Shown here: piece by piece, positions 1,436 through 59,482 of the stretch
Layout of the letters: each line of letters starts with the position of its first letter
Position numbering within the stretch: position 1 is the stretch's first letter
From: Raillietiella orientalis
Lineage: Eukaryota
Direction of reading: 5' to 3'
Length of the DNA stretch: 64,000 bases
NCBI GenBank assembly: GCA_036172245.1
Contig: JAYWIR010000017.1
Coordinates: 3,782,001 to 3,846,000 of the forward strand
Made by a program: the position numbers and the translations under genes
Notes under the pieces: generated by a model
What the model was told of the DNA's origin: nothing
The model's database searches: none
Seen by the model: the letters and a program-made list of their open reading frames with translations, nothing else

Positions 1436-4045
1436 CACACTTTAAATCAGTCCCTAAGCATACCGTCCCTTTGACTCCTGGCTCAAACGCATGGTAAAAC
1501 CTCTAGCAATCTCAGTCTGTCAGCTACCGGACCACCGAAAACATTCAGGAGAAAAGCTGCTGGGAAATAACGGAAGAAAATTCTGCCCCTATAGACTTCT
1601 ATGGGTGATCTTCTCAGCTTCCACGCAGGCTAGACTAACTTGTCATAAGGTGAGGTCAATGCAAGACTGTTTATTTCTCTACACGGGTATTGTGACACAG
1701 TAGGTGTTACGTATGCGTATATGAGTGCAGTATGTAAATGTGTGCTCAACTCGTGCATATCAGCATCAGCATTCTCAACATCTCAACAATCATCTAATCA
1801 GAAAATTTTCCAGATGCTATTTCTTTTAAAGTATCGATGAGTTTACTGTACCACGTTCCCGAGGGATGCATCCCAGAATTCCTATCAAGCAGTTAGCATC
1901 AGACAAGCCCTTCTTTCACCTTTATGCCATCCAAACGAGGCCTTTGACTTTGTCTTCGGCAGTGTTCCATTTTTCGATCTCCCCCAATCACTTCTGAAAT
2001 ATTCTGGATTGCACGGGAAAGTTAGTTTATGAGCATTTCATCCTGTTTCGTCAACTGAAGCTGCTCAACTCAAGCTTTTTGTGTTTCGAGCGGATGCAGG
2101 CTTCACGAAGCTCAAACTGCGCCTGCTGATCATCATGATAAAAGTAAACACACTCACAACTATCGTTTTGAGATCTTTTGAGCTCATCACGTTGGATTCA
2201 TTTAATGTTTAGTTTTGGCCTCTATTTCTTTAGAAGACTGATTTTCGTGCTCAACTACGAAGGCCCAGCTTTTTGCGTCGTGCTAACAAGTCTTAAACTT
2301 GAAGCCCTTAGACGATCTTTTTTTTCCCCTTTTTTCTACGATTACTGCACGCAACTTGTTAGTGTTATTTTCTCTGTCATACGACACTTCTGAGACAGAA
2401 ATCTGCAAAATCCGAATAACCATCTAAATCATCATCACTGTTAAATTTAAACATGATGAGGAATGAGTACTTCACTGTCGCCAAGAGTTTTCTATTGTAT
2501 TTTCAATCCTTGGAGAGGTCCATTTAACCACACTCTAAAGGCGTTCTCGTTGGAGTGAGAGCACTTGAATCTCTAAATAATCACCCGTTGGCGATTTTGT
2601 ACACTGGCACTTTATTGTGACCCTAGTGAGATTTTAAAGGAAACCTTCCCTTTCCTCTATTTAGATAGCAGATCTAGTCAAAACCCTGAGGATACTCGGT
2701 ATGGCTCCCAAATACAGCTGCGATCACGGCAGAAATCTCGAGGTGCAATCCAATGAATGCCTGCGGCAAAGAAAGATGCTGTGCATAGCTGTCTGTTTTG
2801 ATCGGGGGCAGCCGATGCTCGAAAACTTCCCACCTGCTACCTCGGTGAGCAGGAAATGCACCGCTTGGTTTTGTTTCCAGAGATGAAATCTCTAACCGTC
2901 ATCAGCGCATCCTACTATAATCCGGTCGCTCCAGCTGGAGGGAAAACACAAACGGGTGGGATTTTTCGTTCGGGTGGATAGGGAGAGAAGGCGTCTCGCC
3001 ACCGATCTTGAGCTACCACCCAATATCCCTCCGTTTCAAGCTGCTCTCAATCTCTCAAGCACACCTTGACTATTTTGCCGAGTTACTGCAACGTCACGCT
3101 GATTGGGACTGCGCTCCCTTTCTCGCAGGGAACGAATTGTGGCTCTGGTGGAAGATTCTTCCACTCGTCATATCCGCTTCTGATCTCTTCCTCGTTTGAC
3201 TTCTTCTCTTTCACTGTTTCTTTTTTGTTGTTGTTGTTGCTGTCTCGTTGCTTTGTATAAGTTTACTTTTGCTTCCCGGCTCTCGAGCATCTGAGTACCT
3301 GGGCAATGGGAAGTTGAGCTGATAACTTGACCTGACAACAACTAATATTCTTGGAACCTTTCCCATGAAAAAAAAAGGTGATTTCGTGCAAAATCGCTGC
3401 TCAGTCGTCAAAGATCGCCGAGTGTGCTCTTCACGGCTTCATGTTCGTTTCTACAGTGAACCAGTTTCCGACAGAGAGCCAGCAAAAGGCAAAAGAAAAA
3501 AAAAAAAAACACGTTGAGTGAAAATTCGAATTCGAACTTTGATTTCGAAAAGCAGCCCTCTTGACGAAGAATTCGGAAGTTCTTGGACGAAAATCCGTTC
3601 TATCGGATCCAAAGACCACATTCCAAGGTCGGCACCGTATTGAAAGTGAATAACCGCTACAGCAGACAGGGCTTCGGGGGAGGGAATGGTGTACAAAGTG
3701 GAATAGCAGCAGGCAGGCTGCGGACTTCGTCCGCTATCACTTTTCCTCTGACCCAGATAAAGTTTTTGTTTTTTAGGCCTAACATCTTCGAACCTTTCAG
3801 CCTCCGAAATTTCGGTCTTCGAAGCCTCAAAAACGTTCCGAAAAACACACGCGAGTGTCGATTTTCAGAGCGGAAGAGAGTTCCTTGAAGGAACCTTGCG
3901 TAAGAATTCCCTCCTACGGTGAAGATCCGCACCCCATTGAACTCTTCTCCCACGATGATGCTTTGTACTGAGAAAGTACATTGACCTGCTCAGCTTTTCG
4001 CGTACGAATGCAGAACTTCATTGACTCATGCAGTTCCTGGCAAGA

Positions 4046-4890
4046 TGAGGAAGGGCCTCCAGCAACCTGCAGCCTCTCCCGTCCGATCCTCTGGGATCCT
4101 CTGGGTCACAATCGCGTGGGTCACCGCCAGGTATCCTCCAGGCGTGCCGCTCCACGAGATGACTCTGGACGAGGTAGTCATTACATACCGTGATGAAGAT
4201 AAATGGGATGAAGTTCAAGCTCTTCTTGATAGAACTGCTAACAGAAGTAAAGTTGACATTGAACCTAAGAATAAATGCTCAAAAATCTGGACTCTTTTAA
4301 ATTATTTTGTTTACAACGGTGGTGTAGATTTAGGTAAGGACATATTTAAACTAATTTTAGAGAAGAGTGGTGACATTAATGCTTTAGAGAGTTGTAATGG
4401 CTGGGCAGCCCTGCATTATGCTGTTCATTATGGTAAGTTGAGGATCTTGTTACCCGGGGTGCTAGCTTAGAAGCCAAAGACAGCAATAATAGCACTCTTT
4501 TACATCATGCTTCTTATAATAATCATTTGAAAGTAGCAGAATATCTTATCGAAAAGGGAGCTACTCTAAAGGCTAAAAACAAAGATGGTAAAACACCTTT
4601 AGATTTGGCTATTCAAAAGGGCTATACAAGTATAGTACGGATGATAGAACAAGTATAATCAGATTTGAATAAAGAATTATTGGCTGCAGTAAAAGGTGAT
4701 AATCTTAATAAATCTCCGAAAAGCTCGACAGAACGTCGGGATTGCGGGAATCCTTTCTCTCCCCCAGCCGTTAGCATGCAGCAGTCCTCGTTAGCTTGAT
4801 AAGCACCGGCTGGACGTCCCTCCCCCTCCGTAATGAGTCCACCGGAGAGCCACTGCCTCATCAGGAGGTTGGGAAGAAGGGAACAATACT
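4046..4890 (+). repeat. Interspersed repeat, copy 1 (interrupted by the ankyrin insert at 4190-4711)
   Basis: Segments 4046-4189 and 4712-4890 align colinearly with the reverse complement of 8245-8565, e.g. gactctggacgaggtag / gaaaagctcgacag.acgtcgggattg / ccactgcctc.tcagga. Confidence 0.85.
4190..4711 (+). pseudogene. Ankyrin-repeat gene fragment of endosymbiont (Wolbachia-like) type, pseudogenised
   Basis: Abruptly AT-rich block without introns. It encodes ...DINALESCNGWAALHYAVHYGKL / (frame change near 4440) DLVTRGASLEAKDSNNSTLLHHASYNNHLKVAEYLIEKGATLKAKNKDGKTPLDLAIQKGYTSIVRMIEQV*SDLNKELLAAVKGDNLNK. Ankyrin consensus is clear (GxTPLxLA, LIEKGA). Internal stop TAA at 4656-4658. The Wolbachia attribution comes from recalled sequence style, not a search. 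Confidence 0.85.
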
Positions 4891-7409
4891 CAGCACTTCG
4901 ATAGAAGAATTTCTTTCTTTTACTAGCTCTGCAATCCCGAGTGGAACTACCATTTTTTGCACGTCTGCGCCTTTGCATTTAAGCGAAGGGCACCTGCCAC
5001 GGACTTTCCAGGAAAAAAGAAGAAAAAGAAAAAATGCTTTCCTTTCTCTTTAGTCCACTTTTTTTTTTCTTTCAGAATTGCCATTTTTTCGGTGAGTGAT
5101 TTCTAGATGAATAGCATTTCCGCTTGCGGATGTCAGCTACTTTAACCCAGCTCTTAGACCACACAGAGTCACGTTTTTTTGAAAATCCATCTCTTCGGCT
5201 CCGACCCGACAATTTGCTGAACGACTGCTTCTCCTCCAGTCCGTCAGCTGGCGCATTAGACCATTTCTTATGAATCCATCCACTTATGTATTGGTGGATG
5301 GATCGCACCAAGCACTCTTTTTTTTTTTTCGCTCTGATGGAATGAACATGAATGAGTAGTTTTAGAAAATCTTCGTGGAAAATGAAAGCCAGGAGCGGGT
5401 CCTTTCAATCGGAGGCAAACAGATCCCCCTTCGCTCAGTAAGAGGTGGCTTTGGGATTCCAATGAGGCTCATCAGGTGAGGAAATCTCAGGTATGTGCTT
5501 CCAGCGTTCCATTCACTCCGCCTGGCGATGACATCCCGTTCTTTAGCCCATCTCTGAGAGTTGGACTTGATTCTCTTTTGAAGAGAAGGAATACCGTTAT
5601 TGCGCAAAGCGATCTGGTAAAAATTTCTTGCACATCTTTTTTCCAGCATCCGCACGCGCTTAATTTATGCATCCTTCAGTTTCTCTTATTCGCCTGCTTG
5701 GCAAAGCAGGCGAATAAGAGAAAGTTCCCACATTTCGGGAAGCAAAATGAATTCGATTTGGATCGTACAGGGAACAGTCGAGCCAAATACGGAAGCGCTG
5801 GGGTTTTTCGAATAATGTAGTTCCGGCTTTAATGACCTCTTGCATTTCCCACTGACCGAGTGCTTTTGAACACTTGAAGAAGATTGTGGATGCTCGTGAT
5901 GAATCATTATTGGAAGCGGCAGTCGCAACTCATCAAAGGAAGCAGCGCAAGAAAACAAGAGTCTATGAGCCACAGCTCACAGAGATTTCTACGGAAAACT
6001 CTAGAAAACTGCGAAAATTAGTGAAAACACAACGATGGACCACATTCTGACGAGTTTTACCTCCCGGAGCTCATTCATCTGAGTACTTGGACAATGGGAA
6101 GCTGAACTGATAACTATTCTTCCAGAGCCATCGTATCGTATCCTGGTGAGTTTTGCGTAGCACGGGTAACATCCTGGGATTTGGGGAGCATTTTATATGT
6201 TTGGAAAACTCGTGAGAGTTCCCAAGATCTGGAATTGTGGTTACGAAACAAGGTCGAAGAGTTGTCCTCCACGAATTCCAATACATTCAGCCCGTGGGAG
6301 TACTTTTTTCCGAATTGGTTTTGATAAGGTGAGTTCGAAGTGGCAAATGGTCAGCAGCTTTTCGTAAAACGACCACAGCTGAGGTTTCCATAGCAATTTC
6401 GGTTGAAGAACGTCTTTCGTTTCCGAAGCAGAGACGTGCAAGAAAGGGAATCGGGCGTTAGAATGTCGCCCAGACAGAGGTCATAATTCGGTCCTGGTGC
6501 CTTGATGCACATCCTAAATCTTAGTGTGTCCTAATCACCGTCGCCACTGTCTCGTTAACCTAATCAAGGAACTGACGCAAGCAGGAGGCTGGGAGACCTC
6601 CAATCCGGGAAGACGATTTCAGTCCCCACTCGGCCCTGATGCTCCAGAAAAGAAAGTCGAACCGCCGTATTTCATGCTTCTTGCCCACGTGAGGAGGACT
6701 TGATGACGATTCTGGAATGGTCACGCTCCTTCTCGCTGCTAGAGGGCGTACCAGCTTCGGTGAGAGCGCTGATGGCGAGATTCCTAGGAGCCTGGGATCC
6801 AAAAGACGGCGCTGAGCTCAGGAAACTCGAAATCCCTCGCACAGTGGCAGAAAAAAACAAAGAGGAGGATGTCACGCACTACCATGCAAAACATCCGGGA
6901 CATGCACTGGGGACACATCTTGGGTCACCGATCAGGATTCACAACTGTCAGTGGGCCTCCACTAGCATGAGAACATAGTGGGAAATTCAAAGTTACAAAT
7001 CACAAGTAGGATGCAGACCCTATTTAAGATTAAAAGTTGCCTATTTTTGGTGGATGGAATCGTAGTGGTCGAAAAACAGGAAAAGTCCCTCAACCTGAAG
7101 GTATTTCTCACGTGGTCGGGTTGGTAGAGTGGACAATTTCTTTTCATTTTCAAGATAAGTATGTTTGCTAAACTAATTGATTTTTTTTTTTGGGGGGGGG
7201 GGGGGGGGGAGAGTTCTGAATTTTTAATAATTGAAATGAAGAACATAATGACAACTGAGTTTTTCTTGTTTTCTAGCATTTAATTTATTGTGCATACTCA
7301 ATCCCTTTCGATATTTAATTCCATTAAAAGTAATCAATATAAATATATTATGCAACATACTTAATTAGTTTGCTTTCCAGAGCCACGTGGCATGCGAACT
7401 GCTGTCTTT

Positions 7410-8145: not shown

Positions 8146-8244
8146 CTGATCCATTCATCACTCCTATGCAGACCAAGTTTGATGGGGGAAGGGATGGGCG
8201 ACATAAACAAGCGATTTGGAGGGGGCTTAACAGCACCCCCGCGG

Positions 8245-8565
8245 ACGAACTGTCCCCTCTTGTCTCATTTTCCTGACGAGGCAGTGGTTCTCAGGTGAAT
8301 TCATTGCGGGAGGTCCGGCAGCCGCATGCGTCCCGGAAACTTGTTTATCAACAAGGGCTGCATTGTAACGTCCAGGGGAGAGAAAAAACTCCCACAATCC
8401 CGACGTACTGTCGAGCTTTTCAGGGATGGTACATAGTGGCTACCTCGTCCAGAGTCACCTCATGGCGCAGCATGGCCGGAGGATATCTGGAGGTGACCCA
8501 TCCGATGGGGACCCAGAGGATCGAAAGGGAGCACTGTTTGCTGCTGGAGGTCATTTCCTTCCTCA
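8245..8565 (-). repeat. Interspersed repeat, copy 2 (uninterrupted, empty site)
   Basis: The reverse complement reads gaggtagccactatgtacc|atccctgaaaagctcgacagtacgtcggg, which is continuous across the point (8428/8427) where copy 1 carries 522 extra bp. Confidence 0.85.
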
Positions 8566-9249
8566 GGTGGTTGGCTCGCCTCTGCAGGATCTTCAGCACC
8601 TTCGGCCGGGTTTTACGCACTCACAGATCCTCACACGAAGATGTGCATCGGGGTGGACACTCTGAAGCGGAAGCTCTCCTTTATTTTCCTGGCATTTTAC
8701 GAAGATGATTGGGTATTTTTCGAAGGAGCAAGTGGTTATGATGAGTGAGACCAGCCGACCTTCGCTTTGGAGTGCGGGATCTGGTCGGAGACCGGATGTA
8801 CCGACTGGATGAGAACTCATTGGATTATTGAGTTGAATTGTATTCGGCATCAGCATCATTTCTTTCCTAATGTGCTCTGCCTGTCACCCAGGGATCCTCA
8901 GTTCTTTTAATACTTCGACGTTTGTCGGATTCCATTGTCCTGAGGTTCTGATGACGATCGTTCTCACCGACGCAGGGCCTTTTGGAGGTGCTGTGCAGAG
9001 CCGTTCCTGATTACCTGGTCTCTTTCCTCTAACTCACCTCTTCTGGAGTCACCACTAGGGGTCACCAGCTGTGATGGTATTCTGGGGTATCAGAATTCCA
9101 TCACAGGCGAGGTGATGAAATGAATTTCGATCTAACGCAAAAGTGCAAGCCTCTAAGAATGCTCGTGACCATGGAAAATCATCTATTTGGAAAGAATCGG
9201 CAAGCTATCTATAGCAAGTAAGGGATGATTCCTTCTATGTTTTTCCTAA

Positions 9250-20450: not shown

Positions 20451-21695
20451 CTAGAAAACGGGTTTCGTGATGCGGGCCCATAGGAGAATCACCCCGGAGT
20501 TGTTGTCCCGGACGAAGAAGAGGAACGGCCGGTTGACCAGGAAGTGCCTGTGCGCTCCGGTTCTTGTGGTCAAGACTATGGTGGAGGCGGAAACCTCGGT
20601 GCCCTTCTCGGACACCTCGACGTTGGCGCGGTGGTACGCGGAGCTCACGAAGAGGGGGCTGTTAGTGATCTTTCGCAAGCTCGCCTTGCTCGGGTCAAAG
20701 ATGTCCGTCACGTTGAGTCTTATCAGTACCTCCATGAGGTCCATATCGCCTTCCATCTTCATCTTGGGCAGGGAGAGCATGCCCGCGACGAAGCGCATGT
20801 TCTCGATGCCCTCGAGGATGGCCTCGGTGGTCAGGTGATTCTCCAGCTCCTCGAGGTTGTGGTCATTGGGCAAAATGACGAAGAACCCGAACTCGGGGGG
20901 CGACCCTTTGTAGGGGATGCCGAACATGGAGAAGTTCAGGCGCTGGTTCTCCCAGTAAGGGAGATCGGTCGAGGACACCATGTACGTCACCAGAACAGAG
21001 CTGGTGCTGTCCACGAAGAAATCGTCCACCTGATTCATGGCCTCGTCGAAAGGGTTCTGCCAGAGGCCTTTGAAATACACGGCGTTGGCCAGGATTAGGA
21101 GCTGGTTGCTGATGGGTTCGGTGAGGATCTTGCTAATCTTCCCCCTGGTGTTCGTCTCCACAAACTCGTTGATGATCCTGCGGCTCTTGGGCTCCTCCAG
21201 AAGGAAATCCAGGGTCTGGATCGAGGCGTTGTAGTAGGTCTTCGCGTTCACTGCGTAGGAATCGCTGAGGGTGACATGCTTGTCGACGAATATCCCGTTG
21301 GCCATGCTGAACTCCGCCCCTCTGTTCTCGGAGAGCAGAAGCGACACGAAGTTGCTGTACACCGTGTGGACGACGTCGGGGCCCACGCTCCTGGGGTAGT
21401 GCAGCGCTGTCCGCACCTGCTGCTCGGCTTCCCTGGAACTTCCCAGGAGCAGCAGGTTCAGCGCAGCGACGATGCTGATGGGCGAGAACATGTAGCTGCT
21501 GCCCGGGTGCTTCGACCTGGCCAGGACCCGGTGGACGTCGAGGGTAAAGTGTATCAGCGATCCTTCCGGGTGGAACCTCTTGTGCTCGACATGCTCGGAG
21601 ATGGAGTCCAGGTCGTTCGTTTCCCTCGCTAGCTGGCCCTGAGCCAGCTCGCAGCCTACCAGGAACGCGACCAGGAAGGACGGAGCCCTGCGCAT
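20451..21695 (-). CDS. Secreted serpin (serine protease inhibitor), 414 aa, single coding exon
   Basis: ATG at 21695 starts a signal-like MRRAPSFLVAFLVGCELAQG. Serpin motifs: FSPISI, INEFVETNTRGKI, LILANAVYFKGLW..PF, LSLPKMKME, hinge EKGTEVSAST, and signature FLVNRPFLFFVRD. Strong GC3 bias. A polypyrimidine tract plus AG acceptor at 21728-21729 suggests a 5'-UTR intron. Confidence 0.97.
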   Translation of the reverse strand: MRRAPSFLVAFLVGCELAQGQLARETNDLDSISEHVEHKRFHPEGSLIHFTLDVHRVLARSKHPGSSYMFSPISIVAALNLLLLGSSREAEQQVRTALHYPRSVGPDVVHTVYSNFVSLLLSENRGAEFSMANGIFVDKHVTLSDSYAVNAKTYYNASIQTLDFLLEEPKSRRIINEFVETNTRGKISKILTEPISNQLLILANAVYFKGLWQNPFDEAMNQVDDFFVDSTSSVLVTYMVSSTDLPYWENQRLNFSMFGIPYKGSPPEFGFFVILPNDHNLEELENHLTTEAILEGIENMRFVAGMLSLPKMKMEGDMDLMEVLIRLNVTDIFDPSKASLRKITNSPLFVSSAYHRANVEVSEKGTEVSASTIVLTTRTGAHRHFLVNRPFLFFVRDNNSGVILLWARITKPVF

Positions 21696-24199
21696 GATCG
21701 ATGGCAGCGGAGTCCTCGTTGTCGTAGCTACGGTGATATGGAAGGAAAAAAAAAAAGAGAGAGAAATGGGAGAGGAAGAACGAGGCACTACGCAGTGAAG
21801 GATTCTTCCACCACCCACCGCTCACGTTGGGGGGGGGGCCCTTCAGGAGAGAATGGGTGGACCGCTTCCGAGGAGTGACGGTGGTGTCCCCGAGGGACTC
21901 GTGCGCGCTTTGGAGCCCGCGGCGAAAAAGGGAAGCGCGCCGAGCACGCCCACGCCCTTCGCGCGAAAGGAAGTTCTCACTGCCTGAGGGAAGGAGCAGC
22001 GCTCCCTGCCCGAAGAGTCGATGCCGCCCGCTGTCCCCCTCCCTCCTCCTGCCCCTGAAACAGGAGGCGTCACTCTCAGTAGACCTTCGAATCGGCTTTC
22101 GATGCTCAGGCTGCGGGACGGCAGCGTCCGTCCGCCCTAGCTTTCTGACTAGCCCACGCACCACAGACGATGGAGGGAAGCGGAGGCACCGAATTTATCG
22201 ATCTTTTCGGAAGCTTCAAAGATTTCTTGAGTGTGCTCGGCGCGCGTTGAACGAGCGACGGCGGCAACGCCAACGGCGGACCTTGGAAGTTTCCCGATTC
22301 CCAGCGGATCCATCCGGGAATCTCCTTCCCCCCCCCCCTTCCTCTTCCGGAGGAAGAGTTTCCAAGGATCGCCTGCATTGGTCTCATTGTTTGATTTTGG
22401 ACACATCGGATGATTCCTCTGCGACCGTTCCGGTGCTAGCAGACTCTCAGACAAGAATCGAGTAGATCAGTGAGGTTTTGGGAATCCTTCTATACCGTGG
22501 CCAGTTTCGCTTTGGCCGCCCTTTTGCGCACCTCCAAGATTCGTAGCTCCAACGCAGCTTCGTTTGCATATTTTCCAAGCTACTTATTCCAGCGTCTTGC
22601 TTCCCAAATCCCTGCCGTCCTCCTTCGTACTGTTCTTCTCTTTGGGTCGCACGGAAACGGACTTGCCTTTTCCAGAGCGAGCATCGGAAATCTTTGTTAC
22701 AACTCGACCACAAGACCTGACTTTTCATTCAGCCTCGTGGCGTCTGGATTCGTTCCAGAACATTCGTGCATTTCACGATAAGATATGTCAGATATCCGCA
22801 GCTTCCGTCGTCTTAAAAGAGTCTGAAAAAGGCAAAACATGGACTGGAGAACATTGGTTTCCCGACACTGAGGTCATCCCTGATATCTGGAACGATTACT
22901 CCTCCCTCGCCTCACAAGGTCTTCAATGTCTTTTCTGTGCACAAGATGACCGCTTCTTTTGTTGCACAACTGCGGGAGTCTGGCCATCTTCAATGACAGG
23001 AGTAGTTTCAGCTCTTTCCAGCCGCTCTTCGCTGTGTGCGGGGACGCCCCAGGCGCTTTCTCAAGCGCTGAAAATCCGATTCAAGTTCTTTGAGGGACGG
23101 TTCCCTACCACTCCCGGACTCCTCGACGGAATTCCTTTTCGGATTGTTCCGAACAAGCGAAGGTCTTCGAGACATTGGAAACTTGCCTTAATTAAGTCGG
23201 CGCAGCAGTGTCTGCAACACTGCTTGAGAATGGCAGCATGCTGGAGCACAGACCGACTTTTAATCCAGAGTGTCGGACGTTTCAAAGTCCGAAGGTGCCA
23301 CTCCGAGAAATTTTTCCCTCTGCCTTGTCCAGGCGGGCTCGCCTTCCTGACTCGCCATTTTAACGCTCTGCAACAGCGATTTCCGCAGGATCGCGTTGTG
23401 GTTTCGTCGTGTCCTCCGACCTCATGCAGATGCCTGCAGTTTCTTCAGGTGAGACGGCGGGAACCGCGACCAAGTCATTTTTTGCCCGACTGCCATGCAC
23501 GCAAGCGGCGACGCCACCGCCTCCTTTTCCACGATAACACAGCATGCCGAGGACGCAGTGTTATTGGTTTCGTCCATGTACATTACTCTGGATTTTCTAA
23601 TAGTCACTAACAGTTCACTTCCGAGCGAAAATGCGTGTACACAGACGTATTCCTACAACGAGAAATTAATAAACATTCTCTCTGACGTGATATTAAAGAA
23701 ATCATTTACCACTTAGCGTCAAAAAAGCTCGTAGCTTGGAAACTTCAAGGTGAACGCACAAAAACAAGCCCAAACTAACCCGAGTCACGTGGACCGGAGT
23801 TCATCACCATCATTCACTATGTGCAAGATGTGTACTGAATAAGTACAACATGTACTTTGCACATGCATCGATTTGAAAGGATATAAAAAAAAAAAAAACT
23901 AGGGCTTTGGTCGGAAGAAGATGAACGCCTATTCGTGCATTTAAAAGAAACACTGCGGTGGAGGTATCCGGATGGTGTTGTTTCATTGTCTCGAAACTTG
24001 AGCATCAAATAGTCAACCACTTGATTCAACCAACCGAATCAAACGATTCCCGCCTGTCCAGATAGGACTCTTATCAGCTGCGAGACTTCGCAGAGGTTCC
24101 GCCGTATGGATTTGGTGTCTTGAACCGAGGACACCAATAAGATCAGAAATACAGCACACATAGACAGTGCACAGTAACCAAGATGAGTAGATGCTATCT

Positions 24200-58271: not shown

Positions 58272-59482
58272 TTACAATAAGTCCATACAATCACTATCTT
58301 TGAATATCTGCTTAGTCTGACTGTACACTTGCTTGGCAGCATGAACAACCTTGGGAAGAACTTCCAGTATATGCTGCTGCATTTGATGACAAGCACCACA
58401 AATACGATTTGCTAATTCTTGCTTTGTTGGTAAAAAAGGTATAGCCATAAGGACTGCTTTCCTGACTAACCATGAATGATACTTTGCTAATGAATCATTG
58501 TAGGATTCTTTACAGATATTTCCCATTTTATCTCCCATCTTCAAATCAATAAGCTTAGTGAGGAATTTATCTAAAAACTCTGTAGAAAAATGCAACTTAT
58601 TCTTTTCTATTGCGAACACTTTTAAGAATGCAGTTTTTTAGAAATTTATATAAATTAAACTGATTGATGAAACTAAAATATTTAAGAAAATGAATCAGTC
58701 TGAAACTACCATCTTACAAATACATGAATATTTCAGTATTCTAAGAAATAATTAAAAACTGAGAACATCACTATGTGATGTGATTAAAAACATAGATATA
58801 TAAAGTTCTTACATTCAATGTTTCTTTAATAAAAGCATGCTTATAAAGGGCAGTTCAAGTGAATATTTAAAAATATGATAAATTTTCAGTAGCTAGAGCT
58901 TACCTAAAGCTCTGTGTAAGCGTATGATTATTTGTGAACCTGAAACAAAGTGTGTGTCATACAACAATCCTGAATTTTTTTCGTATGCAAGCATGGATAG
59001 GCAAGTTTTATAATGCTTAGATTGTTCACCACTACAATAACGATTAAGTTGCATAATTTTGTCTTCAATATCGTGGCTGACAAAAGTAAATAATTTACCC
59101 AGTAATCTACAAAATCTAAAGAAAGTAATGATGAGAAACACACAAATTGAAAATTTCTTAAAATTTGAATTCTAAATTAAAAGTTTAGAATTAAAAACAA
59201 ACACTAAATTCACAAGAAAATTCATAAGGTAACATTAAAGCATTTTTTTGAACTTTGAAACTCATAACTCATTTGTGTTGAAAATGTGCATGAGTAGACT
59301 TTGTAGCCTTATTAACACACTACATTATCAATGTTTTATTAAGCAGTTATTAAAACACTGATTTACTTGCATAACTCCTTAAATGCATGTAAATAGGGAT
59401 CCAATCGGAGGCTTCTTTCTGCTAAGCAATTTTCTAATGATTCATATAGCACATCTATGTTGAACTGATCATTAGAATCCAT
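58272..59482 (-). CDS. CPTP: Ceramide-1-phosphate transfer protein (GLTP-fold, GLTPD1-like), 211 aa; coding exons 59482-59367, 59115-58904, 58579-58272
   Basis: The three exons with GT-AG boundaries sum to 636 nt in frame: MDSNDQFNIDVLYESLENCL...LDPYLHAFKELCK/FCRLLGKLFTFVSHDIEDKI...SGSQIIIRLHRAL/EFLDKFL...YNDSLAKYHSWLVRKAV...LPTKQE...MDLL*. Motifs FxFxSxDxxxK, RLHRAL and LAxYHxWxVRxAV are characteristic of CPTP. Confidence 0.93.

Follow-up and report, generated by a model that had tools for sequence, protein, structure and literature searches.

Within the 64-kb stretch of DNA analysed here, which we refer to as the window, a 522-bp AT-rich block interrupts a host repeat, and a second copy of the same repeat lies uninterrupted on the opposite strand some 4 kb away (Table 1). 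The first-pass annotation had described such a block and had read the second copy as a preserved empty site, and both descriptions are borne out by alignment, by BLASTN of the flanks and by the GC profile; the junction sequences that it quoted are present. When positions 3990-4900 were aligned using MAFFT with the reverse complement of 8240-8640, the paralog showed a single long gap of 522 bases, corresponding to the block from end to end, with conserved columns that end at 4189 (...TACC) and restart at 4712 (ATC...). The GC content of the block is 34.1%, against 54.3% and 52.7% in the adjoining 300 bp on its two sides; in 100-bp windows, values range from 0.29 to 0.47 within the insert and from 0.49 to 0.66 in the flanks. 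Two copies of the repeat were seen in the 64-kb window by BLASTN of the flanks, of which one is filled.

Table 1. Features of the interrupted repeat, of its insert and of the uninterrupted paralog, together with a neighbouring gene; positions are those of the window.
Feature	Position	Strand	Description
Left arm of interrupted host repeat	4095..4189	+	BLASTN 82% over 95 bp to 8522-8428, E 1.5e-21
Insert, Wolbachia-derived	4190..4711	+ (coding sense)	522 bp, 34% GC; sole gap in the paralog alignment
Segment A	4190..4436	+	Matches the opening part of an ankyrin module inside the donor gene; 74-77% nucleotide identity to Wolbachia genomes
A-B joint	4435..4436	+	AA from either segment (2-bp microhomology); frame shifted by one base
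Segment B	4435/4437..4711	+	Matches a 92-residue unit of the tandem array of the donor; 77-81% nucleotide identity to Wolbachia
In-frame TAA stop	4656..4658	+	Donors have a glutamine codon (CAA/CAG) in 7/7 aligned Wolbachia segments
Right arm of interrupted host repeat	4712..4866	+	BLASTN 74% over 163 aligned columns to 8427-8271, E 9.5e-18
Uninterrupted paralog ("empty site")	8271..8522	-	Insertion point between 8428 and 8427
GLTP-domain gene (GLTP/CPTP-type)	59482-59367, 59115-58904, 58579-58275	-	Three exons, GT-AG introns

Because the paralog is contiguous across the insertion point, the comparison indicates that no bases were duplicated or lost there: there is no target-site duplication and, at the resolution of the alignment, no host bases have been gained or are missing. 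This agrees with the first-pass annotation to within one or two bases, the empty site being a paralog that is ~74-82% identical to the filled copy rather than an orthologous allele, so that a change of 1-2 bases at the insertion point is possible.

The sequence around the insert is eukaryotic and carries animal-like genes, since it includes an intron-bearing GLTP/CPTP-type gene and a serpin. The exons of the former, which were read by eye, guided by Pfam matches, give a coding sequence of 633 bases. In a protein atlas, its third exon groups at family level with eukaryotic ceramide-1-phosphate transfer proteins, with a taxon hint of Chordata or Rotifera that comes from family-level look-alikes only, and a search of the same exon against longer proteins gave no match. 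The predicted serpin (414 residues, with a signal-peptide-like start; Pfam E 6.6e-92) shares at most 33% identity with any match, the best-named of these coming from bees, spiders, an annelid, ticks, birds and bacteria, while its taxon hint in the atlas, again from family-level look-alikes, is of Arthropoda only. Of the 246 stop-to-stop frames with at least 90 residues, 236 were scanned with Pfam; the other ten were 3985-4467 and nine frames located at 20454-22466, within or close to the serpin gene, whose own frame was scanned separately. The 236 gave two frames with a GLTP domain and nothing else. Rfam and tRNA scans of the 64-kb window found nothing.

Outside the block, we saw no other credible trace of similar bacterial DNA in the window. 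All 40 matches of a tblastn search with two giant Wolbachia proteins fell within 4156-4715, with none elsewhere in the window, and when the entire 64 kb was compared by BLASTN with five Wolbachia genomes, matches were confined to 4191-4715 and one 47-bp hit (E 6.7e-4) in an AT-rich stretch, which we treated as chance rather than as Wolbachia DNA. The first-pass annotation had proposed a transfer from a bacterium to an animal, in an arthropod setting. The recipient side of that proposal stands in so far as the flanks are eukaryotic, with animal-like genes on the assembled contig; for an arthropod host in particular, there is only the hint from the serpin.

The block itself resolves into two segments, A and B, which lie in different reading frames and which both encode ankyrin sequence, in line with the ankyrin coding noted from inspection of the block: Pfam matches Ank_2 (E 5.2e-6) in 4189-4440 and Ank_4 (E 5.5e-16) in 4437-4655. 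The frame of segment A, counted from 4189, translates as RDEDKWDEV...HYAVHYGK, and at the nucleotide level this segment matches nine Wolbachia genomes (G047, G001, G052, G056, G007, G002, G013, G050 and G019). The unit matched by segment B consists of two ankyrin repeats and a linker, and the insert is truncated inside the unit that follows; amino acid identity to the giant open reading frame (ORF) of one Wolbachia locus, L001, is 68% and 64% over 92 residues.

In the eight Wolbachia loci that we fetched, the counterparts of segments A and B are colinear and in the same orientation in every case, and they lie 2.8-3.5 kb apart, within one ORF in six of the loci and in two adjacent ORFs in the other two. 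The spacing is similar in the Wolbachia-type protein P0128, where residues 2286-2366 match segment A and residues 3359-3447 match segment B. The switch in homology falls at 4435/4436 in all of the searches, and in comparison with each of the eight loci segment A ends at 4436 and segment B begins at 4435. Alignments show that the donor genes continue past segment A with GGTAAT... and that they read ...AATAAAGTTGA ahead of segment B; at the joint, the donor sequence is ...TATGGTAAT... past segment A and ...AATAAAGTTGAGGAT... where segment B starts, and that of the window is TATGGTAAGTTGAGGAT. These alignments show that the block joins, head to tail and out of frame, two pieces of one donor gene that are not adjacent there, a structure that is new in the present analysis. 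The same approach defines the outer junctions: on the left, zero bases are common to donor and host in the alignment, and on the right, the A at 4712 can be assigned either to the donor or to the host (1-bp microhomology), the donors reading AATAAA and the window AATAA/A, where the stroke marks the junction.

A stop codon and a disrupted frame had previously been taken as arguments against contamination by a living symbiont. Both lesions are present. The frame disruption, however, is the joint between segments that lie ~3 kb apart in the donor genes, not a simple indel. The insert consists of ankyrin sequence only, with neither a start nor an unbroken frame and with no latrotoxin domain, and so cannot make the protein of the donor gene. 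An ORF at 3985-4470, which crosses from the host flank to the insert, was considered as a functional chimera but is taken here for a frame left open by chance where the sequence is GC-rich.

Several lines of evidence bear on the donor. When the 73-residue frame of 4437-4655 was used to scan one genome per prokaryotic species, 74 loci were recovered, of which the best two are from Wolbachia, with 70% (Wolbachia from Tribolium confusum) and 66% (from Penenirmus auritus) amino acid identity over the 73 residues; both belong to giant ORFs, which are 3041 and 2678 residues long. The third locus, from Candidatus Mesenet, reaches 56%, and the remainder lie at 30-51%, save for two fragments of fewer than 25 residues (L072 and L074). 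The loci at 30-51% look like generic ankyrin similarity. By BLASTN, 38 of the 60 genomes of Wolbachia contain a match to the insert, the highest identities being 81% over 4435-4710 and 77% over 4193-4436, whereas phage records gave no match. Against environmental metagenome contigs, segment B reached at most 53% identity, and against viral contigs at most 39%; segment A matched nothing in either set.

Since the frame of segment A (P0001, 4189-4440) is less repeat-like than that of segment B, we chose it for a search of 1.84 billion representative proteins. HMMER returned 1193 hits at E<=0.001, the best full-length relative being P0128, with 63% amino acid identity. Ten clusters of hits cover the whole of segment A, of which eight carry names, and the bacterial names are all Wolbachia. 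The sole eukaryotic name among the ten is an unnamed product of Callosobruchus chinensis, a beetle known for its Wolbachia inserts, and this entry is grouped with proteins of Wolbachia pipientis. A word-indexed search of segment A against proteins of 148-2000 residues gave no match; most of its relatives exceed 2000 residues and came up in the HMMER search.

A maximum-likelihood tree was also computed for the region of segment A from 20 rows, each of which, apart from the window, is either a Wolbachia sequence or a database protein that carries no name. In this tree, 10 Wolbachia orthologs form a tight clade, and the window is placed as its sister (support 91/95), among other clades of Wolbachia paralogs. 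In neither the BLAST searches nor the phylogeny were host or other metazoan ankyrin genes the best relatives. The endosymbiont origin suggested by the first-pass annotation is therefore upheld, the nearest relatives at both the DNA and protein levels being Wolbachia genes, and we identify the donor, by sequence comparison, as Wolbachia.

The proteins of the donor type contain dozens of ankyrin repeats, and the matching ORFs run from 2678 to more than 4500 residues. That of locus L002 has many ankyrin repeats followed by a C-terminal Latrotoxin_C domain (PF15658, E 1.8e-11). In P0128, Pfam detected no latrotoxin domain, and a match to a ricin-type lectin fell just below the cut-off (25.4 against 25.6 bits). 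NCBIfam models matched the donor proteins below cut-off in every case, and these matches say no more than that ankyrin repeats are present. In G047, the sole genome checked for gene neighbourhood, the 20 kb around the gene include a large serine recombinase (phrog_95, E 4.6e-109), transposases, a reverse transcriptase, a patatin-like lipase and a portal protein. On these domain and neighbourhood matches, the donor family is one of very large, putatively prophage-associated Wolbachia ankyrin genes, some of which have a latrotoxin C-terminal domain. The account of phage WO in PMC5062602 includes genes of this kind, described there as "enormous, polymorphic", which are up to 14,256 bp in length, end in a latrotoxin-CTD and lie in a eukaryotic association module; the same account reports such a phage WO region as transferred into Aedes aegypti. 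Compared with these giant ankyrin/latrotoxin genes, as they are presented in that account, the insert matches two parts of such a gene in order, but is an ankyrin-only fragment and not a member protein.

The insert differs at the nucleotide level by 19-26% from every sampled Wolbachia (22-26% for segment A alone). Since the sampled Wolbachia orthologs of segment A differ from one another by no more than ~13.5%, the donor is not any of the sampled lineages. Among 199 donor-invariant sites in segment A, the window differs at 40. By codon position, these changes number 11/13/16, whereas differences among the donors themselves tend not to fall on the second position (e.g. 11/4/13). The counts are small, and the pattern is a weak sign of relaxed constraint on this segment. 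Segment B is uninformative in this respect, because the Wolbachia tandem units with which it is compared are probably paralogs, which would account for the even spread of differences over codon positions among the Wolbachia sequences themselves. There is one stop in the 175 codons of the insert, which sets loose bounds of ~2-10% on neutral divergence since insertion; at d=0.20, the probability of finding one stop or fewer is 0.03-0.12, which disfavours 20% neutral divergence. With one stop only, much of the divergence is probably older than the transfer, so that calling the insert a "fossil", as had been done, says little about its age, and divergence that predates the transfer would in turn imply an unsampled donor lineage. 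Window-specific changes number 32 from AT to GC and 22 from GC to AT, too few for any conclusion about a shift in GC content towards that of the host.

Taken together, the evidence makes it very probable that 4190-4711 is a pseudogenised nuclear Wolbachia insert, likely captured by end joining at a chromosome break. Judged by its sequence, the block preserves 522 bp, no longer functional, of a single giant Wolbachia gene of the prophage-associated, ankyrin-repeat type. Wolbachia DNA would have been set free in germline cells and ligated into a chromosomal double-strand break through non-homologous or microhomology-mediated end joining; the internal loss of ~3 kb could have arisen through co-ligation of two fragments or through a deletion at capture, or could already have been present in the donor copy; and the insert would then have drifted as junk, gaining at least one nonsense mutation. 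We infer the germline entry, the break, the end joining and the order of these events, with the anatomy of the junctions as the sole guide to end joining. Insertion by a transposable element is unlikely because there is no duplication, there are no terminal repeats and there is no transposase; ankyrin coding sequence fills the whole block.

Among the other ways in which the block could have reached its present site, the least improbable, although we still consider it unlikely, is that it was copied second-hand from a Wolbachia insert, larger and older, located elsewhere in the host genome, either through templated repair of a break or as a passenger of a mobile repeat; its ultimate source would still be Wolbachia. 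The block is short, internally rearranged and located in a repeat family, and could have come to this state through several successive rearrangements. Against this, just one of the two copies of the repeat in the window is filled, and other credible Wolbachia-like DNA is absent from the 64 kb.

The block may also be read more specifically, as the only surviving trace of an early-branching, Wolbachia-like lineage that has not been sampled, in a poorly sampled host that is perhaps beyond the documented host range. We regard this as a rather long shot. The lineage part of it is open because the window branches outside the clade of sampled orthologs, and the host part because the serpin and GLTP/CPTP genes are without close relatives in the databases searched. 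If it were true, a lost symbiosis would have left its "ghost" in the insert, which could be dated by its presence or absence in sister species.

A donor other than Wolbachia proper, i.e. some other intracellular bacterium of the Anaplasmataceae or Rickettsiales with a related giant ankyrin gene, is improbable. Such a donor could explain why the window falls outside the tight clade of sampled orthologs and why segment A is so divergent from all of them (22-26%), and the Candidatus Mesenet locus, which matches segment B at 56%, shows similarity outside Wolbachia. Yet the tree puts the window within the spread of Wolbachia paralogs, the named full-length relatives of segment A are Wolbachia save for the Callosobruchus chinensis entry, and in the prokaryotic scan no other bacterium exceeds 56%, against 66-70% for Wolbachia.

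Wolbachia reads are frequent in arthropod sequencing projects, and reads from a living symbiont could in principle have been mis-stitched into a host contig; the continuity of the junctions is known from the assembly alone. We consider such a chimera very improbable, because the host repeat resumes exactly at its breakpoint, because donor and host have at most 1 bp in common at the junctions and so offer no overlap to mislead an assembler, and because the frame-breaking 3-kb loss and the nonsense codon are found in none of the Wolbachia genes compared. In addition, just 522 bp of such DNA stand amid 64 kb of eukaryotic sequence.

Least credible of all is a native eukaryotic ankyrin exon, perhaps itself a source for the Wolbachia phage genes through transfer in the reverse direction, for which one might cite the ORF that crosses from the host flank into the block and the eukaryotic origin argued for parts of the phage WO genes by Bordenstein and Bordenstein 2016 (PMC5062602), but which is largely refuted by a GC content of 34% in a context of ~54%, by the interruption of a repeat that has an intact paralog, by a coding sequence that is out of frame and carries a stop, by matches to two parts of one Wolbachia gene ~3 kb apart, and by named full-length relatives that include no eukaryotic entry save that of Callosobruchus chinensis, grouped with Wolbachia pipientis.

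As the pseudogenised remnant of a Wolbachia gene, the insert is small and dead, and no function is expected of it. Its value is anatomical: the empty site and the donor genes together fix all three joints to 1-2 bases, and two pieces from far apart in one bacterial gene are seen to be ligated with 0-2 bp of microhomology, as would be expected after capture by end joining. More generally, symbiont DNA in host chromosomes is a record of present or past infection, and such inserts can mislead PCR- or read-based screens for Wolbachia as well as the filters used to remove contamination from assemblies. If the host lies outside the groups known to harbour Wolbachia, or is uninfected today, the insert would be evidence of a lost association.

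The junctions resemble those of nuclear inserts of organelle DNA (NUMTs and NUPTs), in which short organelle fragments, sometimes several joined together, are caught at double-strand breaks with little or no microhomology and no target-site duplication, and later undergo neutral decay. The anatomy is alike; the donor here is a prophage-associated gene of a symbiont, not an organelle genome. Nuclear Wolbachia DNA is likewise well documented in hosts, among both arthropods and nematodes. In the woodwasp Sirex noctilio, a published survey lists 12 Wolbachia gene remnants, of which 11 are pseudogenes, and describes four that resemble Wolbachia ankyrin/TPR proteins with 77-86% identity, one of them also latrotoxin-related (PMC8962096). 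The present insert belongs to the same class of gene as those remnants and, as far as they are described there, shares their pseudogenised state, with frame changes and premature stops (PMC8962096). Large nuclear Wolbachia inserts are reported from Drosophila ananassae (PMC4299567). The type of event is thus already known; what the present locus adds is a cleanly resolved junction anatomy and a composite structure. It differs from known nuclear Wolbachia transfers in being a lone 522-bp piece, composed of two non-adjacent donor segments, and in having a paralogous empty site that sets both breakpoints to about one base.

The interrupted copy of the host repeat, into which the Wolbachia-derived ankyrin block is inserted, carries an 11-bp tandem duplication (GATCCTCTGGG x2) at window positions 4085-4106, and the uninterrupted paralog of the repeat has this 11-bp GATCCTCTGGG as a single copy. 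An open frame of 161 codons on the forward strand (3985-4470) starts in the GC-rich host flank and continues into segment A, the first of the two parts of the insert; this predicted frame is probably open by chance.

Base composition is highly variable across the 64 kb (positions 1-64000), with 1-kb windows ranging from a GC minimum of 0.28 at 57-58 kb to a maximum of 0.63 at 34-35 kb. The base compositions of the two recognisable genes (see table) differ in step with this unevenness, the serpin lying in surroundings of ~60% GC and the GLTP/ceramide-1-phosphate-transfer-type gene in local GC of 28-35%. The predicted N-terminal start of the serpin resembles a signal peptide. When one exon of the GLTP-type gene was searched against longer proteins, no relatives were found. 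Because the top identity of the serpin in the database search was only 33%, the host lineage looks poorly sampled.

Recognisable genes in the window
Gene	Position	Strand	Structure
Serpin	20454-21695	-	intronless, 414 residues
GLTP/ceramide-1-phosphate-transfer-type	58275-59482	-	readable as three exons, GT-AG introns

Since the giant ankyrin gene, the prophage-associated donor type of the insert, is broken into two adjacent ORFs in two of the eight Wolbachia loci (L092 from genome G019 and L096 from G013), its decay, as read from these gene structures, is a process that occurs inside living Wolbachia too. Over the 276 bp of loci L093-L098 that correspond to segment B, the second part of the insert, five Wolbachia genomes (G052, G007, G056, G002 and G013) are mutually identical, and yet they differ among themselves in the segment A region; this suggests that the tandem ankyrin units of the giant gene were recently exchanged or homogenised.
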